DNA of 12,586 nucleotides from a virus (Duplodnaviria > Heunggongvirae > Uroviricota > Caudoviricetes): IMG/VR virus record IMGVR_UViG_2534681978_000013. One strand, 5' to 3'. The translations under genes and the position numbers were made by a program. Position 1 is the stretch's first letter; every line of letters starts with the position of its first letter. Shown here piece by piece: positions 977-12,586 of this stretch. The notes beneath the pieces were generated by a model that saw only the letters and a list, made by a program, of their open reading frames with translations, made no database searches and had not been told where the DNA came from.

Positions 977-3045
977 GATTTATCACCTCCGAAATTTTCA
1001 AGCCTGTTGGCAATCATGATGGCGATATCAGGGATTGCTGGCGCTGTGGCTATACATGCGGGGTTGGCGCACAAACCATAGACGGCGGCAATCACGAGCT
1101 GTCTTTTCCAGTCGAGAGTTACTGGCTCAGAATTGGCGTCATCGCCGGACGTATCACTGCCTGGCTCGTTCTGAACAACGGTTTCGCCCTCCTGAGCGGC
1201 ATCAACAGAGTTTTCCTGAATGATCTTCTCCTCAGTTTGTGCTGAGTCTTCTCCATCAGCGGCGTCATTTTCTCCAAAAGTTTCAGCGTAAGTTTCATCT
1301 CCCATTACTGGACCACAGTCAGGGCAATGGCCGCCACCGTTCCGACTGCATGTGGTGCAAACCTTTTCCACTTCCTGTTGCATTACTGGCCCTGGCTGTT
1401 GCTCTTCTGGCCCGTTTTGTTGCGTATCCGGGCTGTTTTGTCCCGCTTCTGGGGCAATTTGTTCCACTTTGGACTGATTCTGGTCCTCAGTGTCGCGAGT
1501 CTGGATCCCCTTCACCCACTTCGGATCAGCAGGGTTACTGATGCATTCAACGAATTCTCCACGCGAGGCAGCCAGTAATTTGTCGGCATCGACTGGATTT
1601 TTTGGGGGGATGTTTTCCCTGGCTTTATTGAGTTCCTCCCTCAGTTCCTGGTATTTCGTTTCTACAGATGAGACATTTTCCAGTGATTGCGTGTCCTCAT
1701 TATGTTTAACTGGAATTTCTTCCACTGATTCAGGCGCTGCCTGTTCATTAGCCATTGTGTCCGATGCTTGTTGCTTTTCTTCATCGCCATGTTTTCCTTC
1801 TGCTGTTCCGCACTGCGGCATCGGTGCTGATGAGCGACCGCAGGCAATTTCCACGATTTCCGGATCCGGGTTAGCGTGATCGGTTTCGGTCAACACTTTG
1901 TTGAGATATTCAGTCACGCGTGCCGGGATGGCCTCAATGCCGATTGGTGCTTCTTTCACGGAAGCCACCACAATGGCGCGGGAATAATCCAGCCCACCGG
2001 GCATGGCGATAAATTTGTCGCGAAAAACAGAAAAGGGCGGCTTATTCTCTGACACGATTTCTTCAACGCGTTTTGCGTGTGCTGGGTGCAGGTTATAAAT
2101 ATCCACATCCATTGAACGGGCCAGAACGCCGGTGGCTACATCTCGTGCGAGTGATGTCTTATCATGTTTGAATCCTTCACCACGATCGGTAATATTTCCG
2201 CCGCCAGCGTTAGCACCGGAAGGCGTACGGGTAATGCCTGAAACATAATTTCCGTTCTGCCATTCTTTTGTCAGCAGGCCCTGATCAAGGTAGTCAGTTT
2301 TCATCCAGGTGGAAATGAACTTGTCGAATTCAGCCGGGCTGATTCGATGATTTGCAGAGTGGGGGAATGCTTTCCCTACAGATTCAGCCAGGCGACTAAG
2401 GTGATAGTTCGTCAGTTTATCCAGTTCATGATGCGCGGCGCGCACAGCAGTAAGCAGGCTCTGAAGGTAACTGTCCTCTGTGTCCATCTCCATACGGATC
2501 ACGTTATTGCGTTGTTCTGGTGTGGCATGATGCCGGTATTTTCCATCTTCATCTTTGCTGAATAAGAAGAGGTGAAGGAAGCGATGAGTAAGGCTCAGAG
2601 TGGCGACGGGAATTTCACACTCAGAACAGTCATCGTCGCTGTCCGGGGATTCGCTTTTCTCCACATCATCCGGAATAGTTCCGTCCAGGTTATCGTTGTC
2701 ATCGCCAGCAGTTGTGGCATCTTCACCGTTGATGTTGTCATCGAAGGGGATAGCCATCATGGTGATGCCATCGTTACCGCCTTTTTCATAGCGGTTGCAG
2801 AATTCAGTATCAAACACGCCTTCCGGTGGAAGGTCATTCACGACGGGGAAATTTACGCGAACGGGTTTTTTGAAATCATCCTCGTCGTAGCCTGCATCGT
2901 CCATGGCTGCAATGCAGCGGGAAACTGCGACAGAAAGTTTTCTGGCCTCGGTCCAGAAAAAACCGCCTTTGATGCCAAGGCGTTTTCTGACTTTATCGTT
3001 TTTTGCTTCGCAGTGTAGTGCAAAAGTCTGTTTATCAGCGCTCAT
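973..3045 (-). CDS. Large acidic hypothetical protein (690 aa) with a CxxC-x7-CxxC zinc-ribbon motif; possibly related to the non-nuclease N-terminal region of RecE-family proteins
   Basis: Long uninterrupted ORF co-oriented with the pL operon. Contains D/E-rich low-complexity stretches and [15 protein letters not shown]. The block ...[16 protein letters not shown]...[58 protein letters not shown]... resembles, from memory only, the N-terminal part of Rac RecE. No C-terminal nuclease domain: the ORF ends where gam begins. Confidence 0.8.
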
Positions 3046-3152
3046 TGTATTTAAACCTCTGGCTGGATTAGAATTAGCGGCCCTTTGTCTGATTTCTCCG
3101 AATACGGTGACGCAGGGAGAAATCCGGTAGCCTGCGCTGCCGGATTTTTATT

Positions 3153-3539
3153 TCAGTGGAAGGTTGCCTGGTTTGCTGTTTTGTGAGTTGTTTTTCCCTT
3201 TTCGTGCTGGCATTCAGGGCAGTCGCACTCAGAATTTTCTCTTGCAAACTCAAGAGCCTGTGCAAGTGTATGGATTTGTTGTACTCCAATGTTGCTTCTG
3301 ACAACTTCACGTGCAGCATGAATATATGGGCTTGGTGTTTTGCCATTTAACCCACATAAAACAAAACGACTGTCCTTATATTCGTTATTTCCAACTTCTG
3401 TAAGCACTGAAAAAGAAAATACAAAGTCGATTTTGTATTCTTTGCATATTTTACTGATGCGTTCTGCAATTTCTTTGAGTTCATTTATTGCATCAGGACT
3501 GGTTTTGGAAAATATTTCATTTTGCGCAAGTTCTTTCAT
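3153..3539 (-). CDS. Hypothetical protein, 128 aa, AT-rich gene
   Basis: ORF in operon orientation; AT-rich by eye relative to the flanks; C-terminal CDCPEC cysteine cluster; no family recognised. Confidence 0.55.
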   Translation of the reverse strand: MKELAQNEIFSKTSPDAINELKEIAERISKICKEYKIDFVFSFSVLTEVGNNEYKDSRFVLCGLNGKTPSPYIHAAREVVRSNIGVQQIHTLAQALEFARENSECDCPECQHEKGKTTHKTANQATFH

Positions 3540-4869: not shown

Positions 4870-5586
4870 TCAGGCGGTCAGCTCTTTAAGCTTCTGAACT
4901 GCTTTATTCATTTCATCCATACAGTCGATGAATTCGTCCAGTTTAAGCTGCATTTTTCCGGCGGCCTGAAGAATTTCAAGTTTTAAGGGCGCAAGTTTTT
5001 TGTTGAATGCATCATCTTCCTGGCGTTTTTTCTCCGCAATTTCGGCGGCTTTCAGCAATTCTTCAGCCTGTTTTCTGAGTATTTCTGGTGAAGGTGAAAC
5101 TGCTTTGAGGTTATTCATTTCAGGTTCCTGTTGTTGCAGAATTAATTTGTTGCATTCTCTGCGTGAGCGTTTCATTGCAGATTCGCACTTCTTGCAATAA
5201 ATGGCTCTCCCGTCACGCTTGCTGGCATCTGAATAAAAATCATTGACTGATTTTGTCTGCCCGCATCTGGTACATAATTTTGATTGAAGGTCCTTAATGA
5301 TTGTGACGTTTCCTTCCCGTTTGGGATATCCATATTTTTTGTGGCGGAAAAAGGTTACTCCGTTACCAGAACCTTCTTTTCTGACCTTAAATACAATGAT
5401 GCTTTCCCGTTTATCGATAAAATCTATGAGCTGGTTTCTCTCCTTTCCTGACAGTTCGGCAAATGTCTTAACTTTTTTAGTAACTTCCGTAAGGCGAACT
5501 CCATCAGGCATTTTTTCAACGAAGTTTTTAATCTCTGCAAGCGGACGCCATAATTTTTGCGGCAAAACTGAAGGCGTGGTCATCAA
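4870..5586 (-). CDS. Hypothetical protein, about 237 aa, with a zinc ribbon (CTRCGQ...CKKC) and a Lys/Glu-rich coiled-coil C-terminus
   Basis: The ATG at 5583 (or TTG at 5586) directly abuts the TGA stop of the N-like gene (tgaTTGATG), implying translational coupling with N. Occupies the sieB/ral-like position. Confidence 0.7.
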   Translation of the reverse strand: MMTTPSVLPQKLWRPLAEIKNFVEKMPDGVRLTEVTKKVKTFAELSGKERNQLIDFIDKRESIIVFKVRKEGSGNGVTFFRHKKYGYPKREGNVTIIKDLQSKLCTRCGQTKSVNDFYSDASKRDGRAIYCKKCESAMKRSRRECNKLILQQQEPEMNNLKAVSPSPEILRKQAEELLKAAEIAEKKRQEDDAFNKKLAPLKLEILQAAGKMQLKLDEFIDCMDEMNKAVQKLKELTA

Positions 5587-5970
5587 TCACCTCGCCGTCA
5601 GTTGTTTTGATTTCCGGTAGCCTGCCGCGTAAATGGCTACGTTTGGAAGACATACACCAGTTTCTGGTTGCTTATGTCCAAACTCATTCGCGTACACAAT
5701 GGCTGCTCGCTCCAGATTGCGTCTGTATTCTTTCTGTTGCCAGATCACGTCCTGTGCCATGAACTTAATTGGCTTAGCGTCTTCTATGCGCTCAGGCGTT
5801 TCGTGAGTACCTTTAGCCTGAATCTGCGCTCTGCTTAGAGTAGGGCGGTGTAATACTTCTGAACTTATTGCTTCTTCGCGGGCCAGCACGCCGTTAGCTA
5901 ATGCCTTTGCCTTTAAACGCTCACGACGATGAGAGCGTGAATTGCCTTTGAACTGAGTTCTGCGTGTCAT
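5587..5970 (-). CDS. N: N-like transcription antiterminator, 127 aa (non-lambda type)
   Basis: First gene downstream of pL. Perfect SD AGGAGG 5 nt upstream of the ATG. N-terminal arginine-rich motif MTRRTQFKGNSRSHRRERLKAKA; C-terminus ...AAGYRKSKQLTAR resembles my recollection of P22 gp24 / H-19B N. Cognate GACAA-loop boxB hairpins lie in both leaders. Confidence 0.75.
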   Translation of the reverse strand: MTRRTQFKGNSRSHRRERLKAKALANGVLAREEAISSEVLHRPTLSRAQIQAKGTHETPERIEDAKPIKFMAQDVIWQQKEYRRNLERAAIVYANEFGHKQPETGVCLPNVAIYAAGYRKSKQLTAR

Positions 5971-6150: not shown

Positions 6151-6210
6151 CGTAGATTCATATTTGAATCGTTGTATATTCACCGCCCTGGTGAGTAGTG
6201 CGTCCTGCTG

Positions 6211-6247
6211 ATGTGTTTAGTATCACCGCCAGTGGTATTTATGTCAA
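6211..6247 (-). promoter_or_regulatory. pL promoter
   Basis: -35 TTGACA (plus-strand tgtcaa, 6242-6247) and -10 GATACT (plus-strand agtatc, 6219-6224), arranged as in lambda pL and overlapping OL1/OL2. Confidence 0.85.
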
Positions 6248-6281
6248 CACCGCCAGAGATAATTTATCACCGCAGATGGTT
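6221..6281. promoter_or_regulatory. OL operator array: OL1 6221-6237, OL2 6245-6261, OL3 6265-6281
   Basis: Exact 17-mers tatcaccgccagtggta, caacaccgccagagata and tatcaccgcagatggtt, equal to lambda OL1/OL2/OL3 as I recall them. Confidence 0.9.
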
Positions 6282-6440
6282 ATCTGTATGTTTTTTATAT
6301 GGATTTATTTTTTGCAGGGTTGAGTGGCTTGGGAGGTGATCGAGAGATCTGAATTGCGATGTTTAGTGAGTTGTATCTATTTATTTTTCAATAAATACAT
6401 TTGGTTATGTGTCTTTAGGTGGGGGGGTGAGGCAAAGAAA

Positions 6441-6466
6441 ACCCGGCGCTGAGGCCGGGTTTTTCT
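6441..6466. terminator. Bidirectional intrinsic terminator, end of the cI-cargo operon
   Basis: aaagaaa-ACCCGGC-gctgag-GCCGGGT-ttttct: a 7-bp GC stem flanked by an A-run and a T-run, immediately after the TAG stop of the 258-aa ORF. Lambda has the same hairpin left of rexB. Confidence 0.8.
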
Positions 6467-7241
6467 AGGCTACCAGAGACTCAATCCAAGAGTCTCTGGT
6501 ATGGAATGGCAACACTCGTGCGGTATCATTAAATAGTAGTGATAGTTGCTGTAGCTCAGGTGTTAACCCATCGCTGTCAACTATTACAAATCTATTGTTT
6601 ATGTCAGGAACGACCTGACTTAAGTCAACAATCTTCCCAACTGTTGAGTGGGCAGTATTCCATCCCTTACTGCTGGCAAGGCTTACCGTAAACCCGCGTT
6701 TTGGTGGTATTAGTCGAGACTCATTCCTTAGCGTTAACGGAACAGTAATGTTATGCCCACTAATACCTTTCACTTTTTCCTTTAAGGCTAGTCGCTTCCC
6801 AAGCCCTGCTGATTTTAAGTAACTGATTACACATTTTTCGAACTTATCGTCTTTGACCTCAGCATACCAATCAGCAGTTTGGGCGGATGCAAGAATCCCA
6901 CCACGAATAACATTTGCAGTTACCTGTCCAACGGACGACTCATCTGCCCACGCAGATATCTCTCCAGAGTCATTTAATGAAATTCCTTGCGAAGCGAGTG
7001 ATGACCTGATCAGATCAATTTTCTTTTTAGTCAGGTGGATGCCGCGTGATTCAATATTCATCAATGTATCGCAGTAGTCTGTAACCCTATACTGACCACT
7101 CATCTCTTGAACGAATACACTTATCTGCTCACAATCATCGTAGTATGTGAATGGACTAATAACGCGCAGCAACGTGTCGCTCATTGGGTGGCATTCAAAC
7201 CCGAGCTTAGATATGACTGTTGAACACGTTACATTTCCCAT
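6465..7241 (-). CDS. Hypothetical protein, 258 aa (alternative start at 7184), distal gene of the cassette in the rexB position
   Basis: Long ORF co-oriented with cI, overlapping the upstream 180-aa ORF by 13 nt; AT-rich by eye; no RexB similarity and no family recognised. Confidence 0.7.
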   Translation of the reverse strand: MGNVTCSTVISKLGFECHPMSDTLLRVISPFTYYDDCEQISVFVQEMSGQYRVTDYCDTLMNIESRGIHLTKKKIDLIRSSLASQGISLNDSGEISAWADESSVGQVTANVIRGGILASAQTADWYAEVKDDKFEKCVISYLKSAGLGKRLALKEKVKGISGHNITVPLTLRNESRLIPPKRGFTVSLASSKGWNTAHSTVGKIVDLSQVVPDINNRFVIVDSDGLTPELQQLSLLFNDTARVLPFHTRDSWIESLVA

Positions 7242-7771
7242 GATAACTGACCTGATTTATCTTGATTAGGTAAAGGTGGGCTGCCTTCATATATGATATT
7301 AAGCGCCTCGCAAAAATAATTCCAGTAGCCAAAAAAATCATCTGGCTTGATGTTCGTTTCAAGCTTAAGTGCAATTTCTTCCCCAGCTGATTCGAAGTAC
7401 ATGTGATAGTGAGGACCTCGAGCCACCTCAACAAAATCTGGATGGTTCACTATAGATTTATTACGGTGTGGCTTGTTATCCGCAGGGTACGGATCAAGCG
7501 CGTAAATGCGCCTGTCATGAAGAAACATCACAAATGAAATCTTCACTATATCCACCCCTTCAACGATAGGAGGACGCCAGTGAAGCATAAATCTTATGCC
7601 TGTGATTGGGTTGCCAATTTCATCAAAAGCTTTGAGATCCAATTTAAACCAGATTGGGGTTCGTCCCTCACTTCCGGTCCATGTAACTCCGCTAAAAGTT
7701 ACTTTTTTCAAGCGAGTAATAGCTTGGTCAACCTCTTTCTGGGTAGGCTTAAAGTCGCCTTTTTTAGCCAC
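7229..7771 (-). CDS. Hypothetical protein, 180 aa (GTG start), proximal gene of the cassette in the rexA position
   Basis: ORF begins 46 bp downstream of the cI stop with a GTG start and a GGTGA SD-like element upstream; no RexA similarity and no family recognised. Confidence 0.7.
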   Translation of the reverse strand: MAKKGDFKPTQKEVDQAITRLKKVTFSGVTWTGSEGRTPIWFKLDLKAFDEIGNPITGIRFMLHWRPPIVEGVDIVKISFVMFLHDRRIYALDPYPADNKPHRNKSIVNHPDFVEVARGPHYHMYFESAGEEIALKLETNIKPDDFFGYWNYFCEALNIIYEGSPPLPNQDKSGQLSWEM

Positions 7772-7817
7772 TGATTCGTATCACCATGAAAGCTATTGTT
7801 AATACCTGTGCTTCTTG

Positions 7818-8534
<717 letters not shown>

Positions 8535-8541
8535 TTAAATC

Positions 8542-8605
8542 TATCACCGCAAGGGATAAATATCTAACACCGTGCGTGTTGACTATTTTACCTCTAGCGG
8601 TGATA
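8542..8605. promoter_or_regulatory. OR operator array with PRM/PR: OR3 8542-8558, OR2 8565-8581, OR1 8589-8605; PR -35 TTGACT 8579-8584, -10 GATAAT 8602-8607
   Basis: tatcaccgcaagggata (OR3) and taacaccgtgcgtgttg (OR2) match lambda exactly; OR1 reads tacctctAgcggtgata, one base different from lambda TACCTCTGGCGGTGATA (position 8596). Confidence 0.9.
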
Positions 8606-8631
8606 ATGGTTGCATGTACTAAGGAGGTTGT

Positions 8632-8832
8632 ATGGAACAACGCATAACCCTGAAAGATTATGCAATACGCTTTGGGCAAACCAAGACGGCTAAAGATCTC
8701 GGCGTATATCAAAGCGCGATTAACAAGGCCATTCATGCAGGCCGAAAGATTTTTTTAACTATAAACGCTGATGGAAGCGTTTATGCGGAAGAAATAAAGC
8801 CCTTCCCAAGTAACAAAAAAACAACTGCATAA
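8632..8832 (+). CDS. cro: Cro repressor, 66 aa
   Basis: [66 protein letters not shown] is near-identical to lambda Cro (two conservative differences by recollection). SD AAGGAGG upstream. Confidence 0.95.
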
Positions 8833-8839
8833 GTAACAC

Positions 8840-8885
8840 CGCTCTTTTCACAATGGACATTCGTCCTACGTCGCTGACAAAGCGA
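8840..8885 (+). promoter_or_regulatory. Putative nutR: boxA-like CGCTCTTTT (8840-8848) and boxB hairpin TCGCTGACAAAGCGA (8871-8885)
   Basis: boxA-like 9-mer right after the cro stop; 5-bp stem with GACAA loop matching the nutL candidate. The 22-nt spacing is longer than in lambda. Confidence 0.45.
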
Positions 8886-12147: not shown

Positions 12148-12586
12148 TTGCCGGAGGGCTTGTGGCAAAAGTTTTTACACAAGAAGAGCGGGAGAAAATT
12201 AAAGGGCAGGTTGTTGAACTCGTACGCCAGAGTGGGCGCGAGACGTTACGACAACTGGAAACTAAAACTGGGGCAACAAGATATCTGATGAGCGTTCTGG
12301 CCAGAGAACTGGTTGCCAGTGGCGATGTATACAACTCTGGTTACGGGTTATTCCCGTCTGAACAGGCGCGTAAGGACTGGCAAAATGCTCGCAAAAAACT
12401 CTCAAGGGCAAAGGTGAAGAAACCTGCAGTGGTTGATCCGGACCTTATCTGGTCGTTACCAGACGGCGAAATACGCCGCTACGACAGGCGNCNGAANATA
12501 ATCTGTCGCGAGTGCCGGAAGAGCGAAGTTATGCAGCGCGTACTGGCGNTTTATCANGGTAANTTTCAGGNNGTAGCGCAGTGAGT
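12144..12586 (+). CDS. Hypothetical protein, partial (runs off the window end), probable GTG start overlapping the upstream stop
   Basis: GTG at 12144 overlaps the TGA at 12145-12147 (GTGA) and is in frame with track ORF 12048..12584; the ATG at 12048 lies inside the upstream gene. The 3' end contains ambiguous bases. Confidence 0.5.

Follow-up and report, generated by a model that had tools for sequence, protein, structure and literature searches.

A two-gene cassette occupying the rexAB position behind the cI repressor of a lambda-immunity prophage as a candidate anti-phage module expressed in lysogens

The viral record IMGVR_UViG_2534681978_000013 contains a lambda-type immunity region in which the cI repressor gene is followed by two overlapping genes, here called orfA and orfB, in the position held in phage lambda by rexA and rexB. 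The whole stretch of DNA analyzed, 12,586 nucleotides and referred to below as the window, matches a prophage located at ynfG in E. coli O104:H4 with 100% identity. A preliminary description made from the sequence letters had placed both reading frames between a terminator and cI, and had proposed that they form a novel two-component anti-phage system. The six-frame list of open reading frames (ORFs) confirms both frames with their start codons, sizes and overlap, and places cI, of 237 aa, upstream of them (Table 1).

Table 1. Features of the cassette and of its immediate surroundings, in window coordinates
Feature	Position	Strand	Remarks
OR3-OR2-OR1 (P_RM/P_R region)	8542..8605	+	lambda operators; 97% identity to lambda
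cI repressor, lambda immunity	7818..8531	-	ORF list, BLASTN
cI-orfA spacer	7772..7817	-	46 nt; Shine-Dalgarno-like GGTGA at 7781-7785, 9 nt before GTG
orfA	7229..7771	-	180 aa, GTG start; ORF list
orfA-stop/orfB-start overlap	7229..7241	-	13 nt
orfB	6465..7241	-	258 aa, ATG start; ORF list
Intrinsic terminator, lambda t_imm equivalent	6434..6466	-	hairpin 6436-6466 over orfB stop codon, then U-tract
OL1-3 + pL	6219..6281	-	operators identical to lambda; downstream edge of hotspot

The surroundings of the cassette are those of lambda, as had been described. BLASTN aligned window 6180-6466 with lambda NC_001416 35550-35831 at 89.5% identity, and window 7818-8846 with lambda 37227-38255 at 97%. 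Between these flanks, 1351 bp (6467-7817) stand in place of the 1395 bp of lambda (35832-37226) that hold rexA and rexB, and the breakpoints fall at the cI stop codon and within the last rexB codons, beside the t_imm hairpin. OL1-3 (6221-6281), OR2 and OR3 are identical to the lambda operators, and OR1 (8589-8605) has one mismatch (TACCTCTAGCGGTGATA in the window versus TACCTCTGGCGGTGATA in lambda). The window cI carries three substitutions, T3A, K71N and V202M, relative to lambda cI. The two breakpoints, the end at t_imm and the lack of a promoter of its own bear out the earlier claim that the cassette replaces rexA and rexB precisely and in the orientation of cI. It had also been called AT-rich, which is true in a mild sense only, the GC content being 0.431 in the cassette, 0.454 in cI and 0.477 in the window.

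Together, orfA and orfB fill the whole interval from the cI stop codon to the t_imm hairpin. Their overlap, which is 4 nt in other alleles, implies translational coupling. A scan of the spacer between cI and orfA gave no candidate promoter, and the cassette accordingly looks like the downstream end of the cI operon (P_RM/P_RE); across the whole region the scan returned five promoter-like sites versus 5.2 expected, which is chance level, and no internal promoter stands out. The OR region is the presumed source of lysogenic cI-orfA-orfB transcription. At the distal end, the terminator hairpin, followed by UUUUCUUU, has a fold of -22.5 kcal/mol (z = -4.0 versus shuffles). Rfam returned no RNA family in the window, and no meaningful repeats were found in or near the cassette.

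Measured against alleles about 90% identical, dN/dS, the ratio of nonsynonymous to synonymous divergence, was about 0.05 for orfA and 0.015 for orfB, with synonymous sites saturated; both are real genes under strong purifying selection, and their coding signal lies well above chance. They also travel together. Phage records, GTDB genomes, IMG/VR and assemblies yielded 98 related loci, and a homolog of orfA lies directly upstream of, and overlaps, orfB in 97 of them at an E cut-off of 1e-5; the sole exception, gp48 of Burkholderia phage phi644-2, was recovered at a relaxed threshold (E 7e-7). The identities of the two proteins to the window allele are correlated across loci (r = 0.99), A always diverging faster than B, a difference in rate that would mildly favor orfA as the sensor. 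Furthermore, in all contexts examined the pair is found directly downstream of a prophage repressor, co-oriented with it and divergent from cro. These contexts include Erwinia, Klebsiella (in a Rac-like element) and Yersinia among the enterobacteria, a Helicobacter prophage, the phages phi644-2 of Burkholderia and phPA-G of Pseudomonas, and also Eoetvoesiella, Cupriavidus and metagenomic contigs. The upstream neighbors fall into 15 clusters, of which at least 10 are different S24-type or short helix-turn-helix (HTH) repressors, and at a few loci one extra small gene stands between repressor and pair.

Some of these loci have peculiarities of their own. The interposed gene of the Providencia/Izhakiella type (L015/L020, about 3044-3393) and of Yersinia (L009 4895-5377), of 113 or 160 aa, has no assignment. 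In Pseudomonas phage VB_PaD_phPA-G (L011 2180-3504) the orfA homolog is unannotated in the record (L011:2920-3504, E 1.5e-26), and a 216-aa protein between the CI-like repressor and the pair matches the PADLOC candidate PDC-S48 (3e-6); going by this match, two candidate defense cargos may be stacked in that slot. The cassette of IMGVR_UViG_2548876529_000017 (L065 2588-3896) is frameshifted, with orfA in two pieces and orfB truncated at its N terminus. Finally, a 518-bp contig of Actinomadura rugatobispora (L021) spans the junction of the two genes, with the 3' end of orfA and the 5' end of orfB at 57% identity to the enterobacterial proteins, and is most likely a contamination of the actinomycete assembly.

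A sister allele, 40% identical in orfA and 51% in orfB, occupies the same slot in phages ev207, ev017, PhiR57_1, PhiR63_2 and Stx1_121427. In the comparison with PhiR63_2, the DNA homology of the flanks continues into the cassette at either end, the pattern that allelic exchange by recombination at a hotspot would be expected to leave. PhiR57_1 and PhiR63_2, both temperate phages of the ECOR collection, presumably come from Brenes & Laub 2025. Of 5426 complete E. coli genomes, 61 carry the window allele, 239 carry the sister allele and 99 carry lambda rexAB. The sister allele is also present in E. coli Nissle 1917, directly after the repressor of a lambdoid prophage (L109 4001-5307, equivalent to NZ_CP022686.1 4789150-4790456) which is presumably the 'prophage 3' described by Bury et al. 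In that study, the cloned repressor of Nissle prophage 3 protected only in part against lambda and stx phages, and the authors state that a further factor of this prophage has yet to be identified (Bury et al. 2018, PMC5987069). As the next member of the operon after the Nissle repressor, the sister cassette is suggestive as the missing factor, and suggestive only.

The protein family of orfA is narrow: out of 1.84 billion cluster representatives, only 22 match it at E<1e-3. The window protein falls in PHROG family 2017 (phrog_2017, 7e-74), and its C-terminal part alone matches DUF6978 (PF22398; E 7e-5, 23.6 bits), under the gathering score of 29.6; such sub-threshold matches occur in 7 of 16 family members. 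Alignments give family-wide invariant residues that include R88, D93, N104, H121 and H123, with H102 and G119 nearly invariant; the signature is R88, D93, H102-x-N104, G119-x-H121-x-H123. In the enterobacterial clade an invariant tail, SGQLSWEM, is found at the C terminus. Homology to orfA extends to the partners of 150 aa encoded upstream in beta- and epsilon-proteobacterial prophages (hhalign probability 96.8%). The fold of orfA could not be assigned, and a sequence-profile search of the PDB with orfA and orfB gave no match at E<=10. Cupin-like, JAMM-like and HNH-like readings of the His motif were tried, and none fits the defining pattern well enough.

More can be said of orfB, which falls in PHROG family 1960 and contains DUF1828 (PF08861) at residues 30-112, with 40.9 bits versus a gathering threshold of 22. 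Its AlphaFold2 model (predicted local distance difference test score, pLDDT, 79.8) has two domains: an N-terminal domain (about 1-125), corresponding to DUF1828, with a fold like that of type III secretion system (T3SS) chaperones and YbjN, and a C-terminal domain (about 130-258), DUF1829-like, with a restriction-endonuclease-like fold of the PD-(D/E)xK clan. The window orfB gave no match to DUF1829 itself (PF08862, PDDEXK clan) at E<=1. The domain scores above gathering in the homologs phi644-2 gp47 and the Helicobacter protein, and the sister-allele orfB matches DUF1829 (clan PDDEXK) at 98.8% in HHpred (DefensePredictor Table S5). Across distant homologs the invariant residues are D36, D55, D58 and G93-E94-I95 in the N-terminal domain, and only G159, S161, H163 and D206 in the C-terminal one; K181 is conserved in the enterobacterial clade only. 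The match to the PD-(D/E)xK fold as such has support. A Ser/His/Asp triad made of S161, H163 and D206 was considered and does not fit a defining pattern well enough to be claimed. Both proteins are soluble, with maximum 19-residue Kyte-Doolittle averages of 1.22 (orfA) and 0.79 (orfB), no transmembrane segment and no signal peptide.

Two computational resources flag the family as possible defense genes. PADLOC matched orfA to PDC-M24A (E 3.8e-4, 18.8 bits, residues 98-160 only) and orfB to PDC-M24B (E 5.4e-7, 27.5 bits, residues 5-169 only), both weakly and over part of the protein, and gave no other family for the window proteins, the presence of a BstA model in PADLOC v2 being unconfirmed. 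The homologs likewise match the A and B components and no other PADLOC family: PDC-M24B is matched by the sister allele at 7e-10 over its full length and by distant homologs at 1e-10 to 5e-13, and three PDC-M24A models are matched by 5, 4 and 2 of the 16 orfA family members, with a best E of 3.8e-4. PDC-M24, with a DUF6978-like A and a DUF1828/DUF1829 B, resembles the cassette in having a small A gene adjacent to and followed by a B of about 250 aa that contains both DUF1828 and DUF1829; it differs in that the enterobacterial A is longer (180 versus about 148 aa), with the extra invariant C-terminal tail. On these profile matches the pair is best classed as a divergent sister branch of PDC-M24, and not as a clear member. 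We found no paper on PDC-M24 in the literature. The statement that the two proteins could be assigned to no named family was too strong, given DUF1828 above its gathering threshold in orfB, the two PHROG families and the weak PDC-M24 matches.

The second resource is DefensePredictor, in whose Tables S5/S10 the sister-allele genes are each a 'Predicted novel defense gene' (PMC13092281). The entries are WP_001062368.1, whose cluster id WP_001074607.1 is the accession of the window orfA, and WP_000968518.1/WP_000968517.1, with mean log-odds of 4.9-6.3 versus a strict threshold of 4; neither sister accession is in Table S6, the list of screened units, and 45% of the predictions tested were validated (PMC13092281). 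The main texts of the literature gave nothing relevant for DUF1828, DUF6978, PDC-M24, the accessions or the PHROG ids, and the sister allele was met only in the DefensePredictor supplements. Since PADLOC and DefensePredictor had already flagged the family, it is not new as a candidate.

The slot itself has precedents. The interval between cI and N is a published mosaic hotspot that houses rexAB and bstA (PMC8585504). RexAB shares with the pair the slot from the cI stop to t_imm, the orientation of cI, the number of genes and a presumed co-transcription from P_RM/P_RE, which makes expression specific to the lysogen. BstA, of prophage BTP1 and its relatives, lies in the same repressor-adjacent slot with the same strict linkage to the repressor, but there a lone protein is accompanied by an anti-BstA DNA element, whereas two proteins are found here. 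Among DUF1829 proteins, the only experimentally validated defense system we found is DS-6/HipAD, the one case in which this domain is 'newly implicated in defense' (DefensePredictor, PMC13092281). It also consists of two proteins, of which the DUF1829 protein is not the kinase and is predicted to bind both the other protein and DNA; it differs in its HipA-like kinase and in its DUF3037 N-terminal domain, where orfB has DUF1828 and the pair has no kinase. Other PD-(D/E)xK proteins with which orfB can be compared are the CRISPR/CBASS-associated Can2/Card1 and NucC, and the type II restriction endonucleases NgoMIV, PspGI and BstEII.

To the observed operon anatomy, coupling, purifying selection and linkage to repressors of many immunity types, we add the interpretation that orfA and orfB constitute a two-protein anti-phage module of the superinfection-exclusion or abortive-infection type, expressed in the lysogen from the rex/bstA slot. 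We infer this role from the precedents of the slot and from the two independent computational flags, and consider it probable, with some reserve. A candidate two-component anti-phage system is still the best reading of the locus; 'novel', as first proposed, claims too much, DefensePredictor already listing the sister allele.

Several points weigh against a defense role. Exclusive linkage to repressors would be expected equally of an accessory of lysogeny control. The PADLOC and DUF6978 matches are weak and partial (E 1e-4 to 1e-7, DUF6978 below its gathering score), and PDC-M24 is itself a computational candidate only. Of the DefensePredictor predictions tested, 55% gave no protection (PMC13092281), and we found no experiment on the pair in the literature covered, which does not include Brenes & Laub 2025 (Cell Host Microbe 33:1004). 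Foldseek returned nothing significant for orfB, and the alignment of its distant homologs shows no conservation of the canonical catalytic D...(D/E)xK motif, which makes nuclease activity doubtful.

How such a module would work is speculative. In a lysogen, transcription from P_RM would provide both proteins at a low constitutive level, and these might form a soluble cytoplasmic A-B complex. The chaperone-like N-terminal domain of orfB may bind peptides or proteins and serve as an interaction or sensor module, and its DUF1829 domain, as a member of the PD-(D/E)xK clan, may bind or cut nucleic acid. The cluster of His, Asp and Asn residues in orfA (H102, N104, H121, H123, D93) would be typical of a metal site, and in the enterobacterial clade the invariant C-terminal tail of orfA could dock on the chaperone-like domain of orfB. 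A cue from an infecting heteroimmune phage would then set the complex to act on nucleic acid of the phage or of the host, and the infection would be stopped. The assignment of sensor and effector, or of toxin and antitoxin, that had been suggested for the two proteins is supported by none of the computations.

A wider proposal can be made, and we offer it tentatively, as one that may well not hold: the A-B pair would found a mechanistically new immune family, linked to repressor operons and widespread in proteobacterial prophages. Its members would be soluble complexes of two partners, one joining a T3SS-chaperone/YbjN-like domain to a degenerate PD-(D/E)xK domain, with S-x-H instead of D/ExK, the other a small metalloprotein with a His motif, and would sense and act on infecting phages unlike any characterized system. 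The family would also explain phage resistance that depends on a prophage, as with the 'other factor' of prophage 3 in Nissle 1917.

Tight translational coupling, strict co-inheritance and co-divergence are also what a toxin-antitoxin-like pair would display, one that serves prophage maintenance by addiction or stabilization and in which one protein is a toxic enzyme, through the His-motif metal site of orfA or the restriction-endonuclease-like domain of orfB, and the other its neutralizer, defense being secondary. The DUF1829 protein of DS-6/HipAD is a further point in its favor, being proposed as an antitoxin-like partner that binds the HipA-like kinase and DNA. However, neither window protein matched a known toxin or antitoxin family, or a characterized defense family, in Pfam, NCBIfam or PADLOC, and the cassette has neither a promoter of its own nor an autoregulatory HTH. 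Furthermore, the frameshifted copy in IMGVR_UViG_2548876529_000017 disrupts both genes, so loss of the pair meets no evident barrier of addiction. We therefore regard this explanation as unlikely, bearing in mind that toxin-antitoxin and defense roles are not mutually exclusive in practice.

The position directly behind a prophage repressor in every context examined, including the remote beta- and epsilon-proteobacterial homologs, would suit an accessory of the lysogenic switch, modulating repressor level, repressor cleavage or induction. Yet the partner repressors are mutually unrelated, ranging from S24-type cI proteins of many immunities to short non-cleavable HTH proteins, and at some loci an unrelated gene separates repressor and pair. 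Lambda and other phages with the same cI and operators work without the pair, their slot holding rexAB or other cargo, and the same strict repressor linkage is documented for the defense protein BstA. A role in the switch thus seems quite unlikely to us.

A host-fitness or virulence moron unrelated to phages, acting by lysogenic conversion, would agree with expression from a lysogen promoter and with carriers that comprise both pathogens (O104:H4) and the probiotic Nissle 1917. Both proteins are cytoplasmic, though, with neither signal peptide nor transmembrane segment, their domains are nucleic-acid- or chaperone-like and not envelope- or host-directed, and they occur where prophage immunity regions do, in hosts and niches that differ widely, so that we hold this to be improbable. 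Last, a highly diverged RexA/RexB, to which the shared position, gene number and terminator might point, is hardly credible, being refuted on the evidence of sequence, topology and fold: BLASTP of orfA and orfB against RexA gave E > 0.5 (RexB was not directly compared), Pfam gave no RexA or RexB family for either protein at E<=1, gene sizes and order (180+258 aa here versus 279+144 aa) and domain content differ, and RexB is a polytopic membrane protein, with a maximum 19-residue Kyte-Doolittle average of 2.39 and 51 windows above 1.6. A RexB-type ion-channel or depolarization mechanism is excluded, neither window protein being in the membrane.

If the anti-phage module that we favor is protective, the pair would rank among the most frequent cargoes of the rex slot, with one allele or the other in about 300 of 5426 complete E. 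coli genomes versus 99 for rexAB, and among its carriers are the lineage of the 2011 O104:H4 outbreak as well as the probiotic Nissle 1917. Functions would then be provided for the DUF1828, DUF1829 and DUF6978-like domains, and the rule that the repressor operon houses cargo protecting the lysogen would extend to temperate phages of many bacterial classes. The conserved residues listed above are ready candidates for mutation.

Other features of the window may be mentioned. Directly after the N gene lies an ORF of 238 aa (4870-5586, minus strand) with CxxC...CxxC motifs, no match in Pfam or PADLOC, and the RefSeq hypothetical accession WP_000211196.1; in the corresponding position of the pL operon, lambda carries accessory genes of the sieB/ral type. 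An ORF of 128 aa (3153-3539, minus strand) with a CDCPEC motif and no family match lies where the window is richest in AT (GC 0.33-0.39) and may be another moron. Near the 3' end, eight ambiguous (non-ACGT) bases at 12491-12572 give X residues in the last listed ORF. The N antiterminator is encoded by an intact ORF of 127 aa (5587-5970, minus strand; Pfam N_peptide, 3.7e-14). For the O104:H4 prophage that is identical to the window, RefSeq annotates at the position of N only a 69-nt partial 'regulator' pseudogene, which is probably an annotation error.

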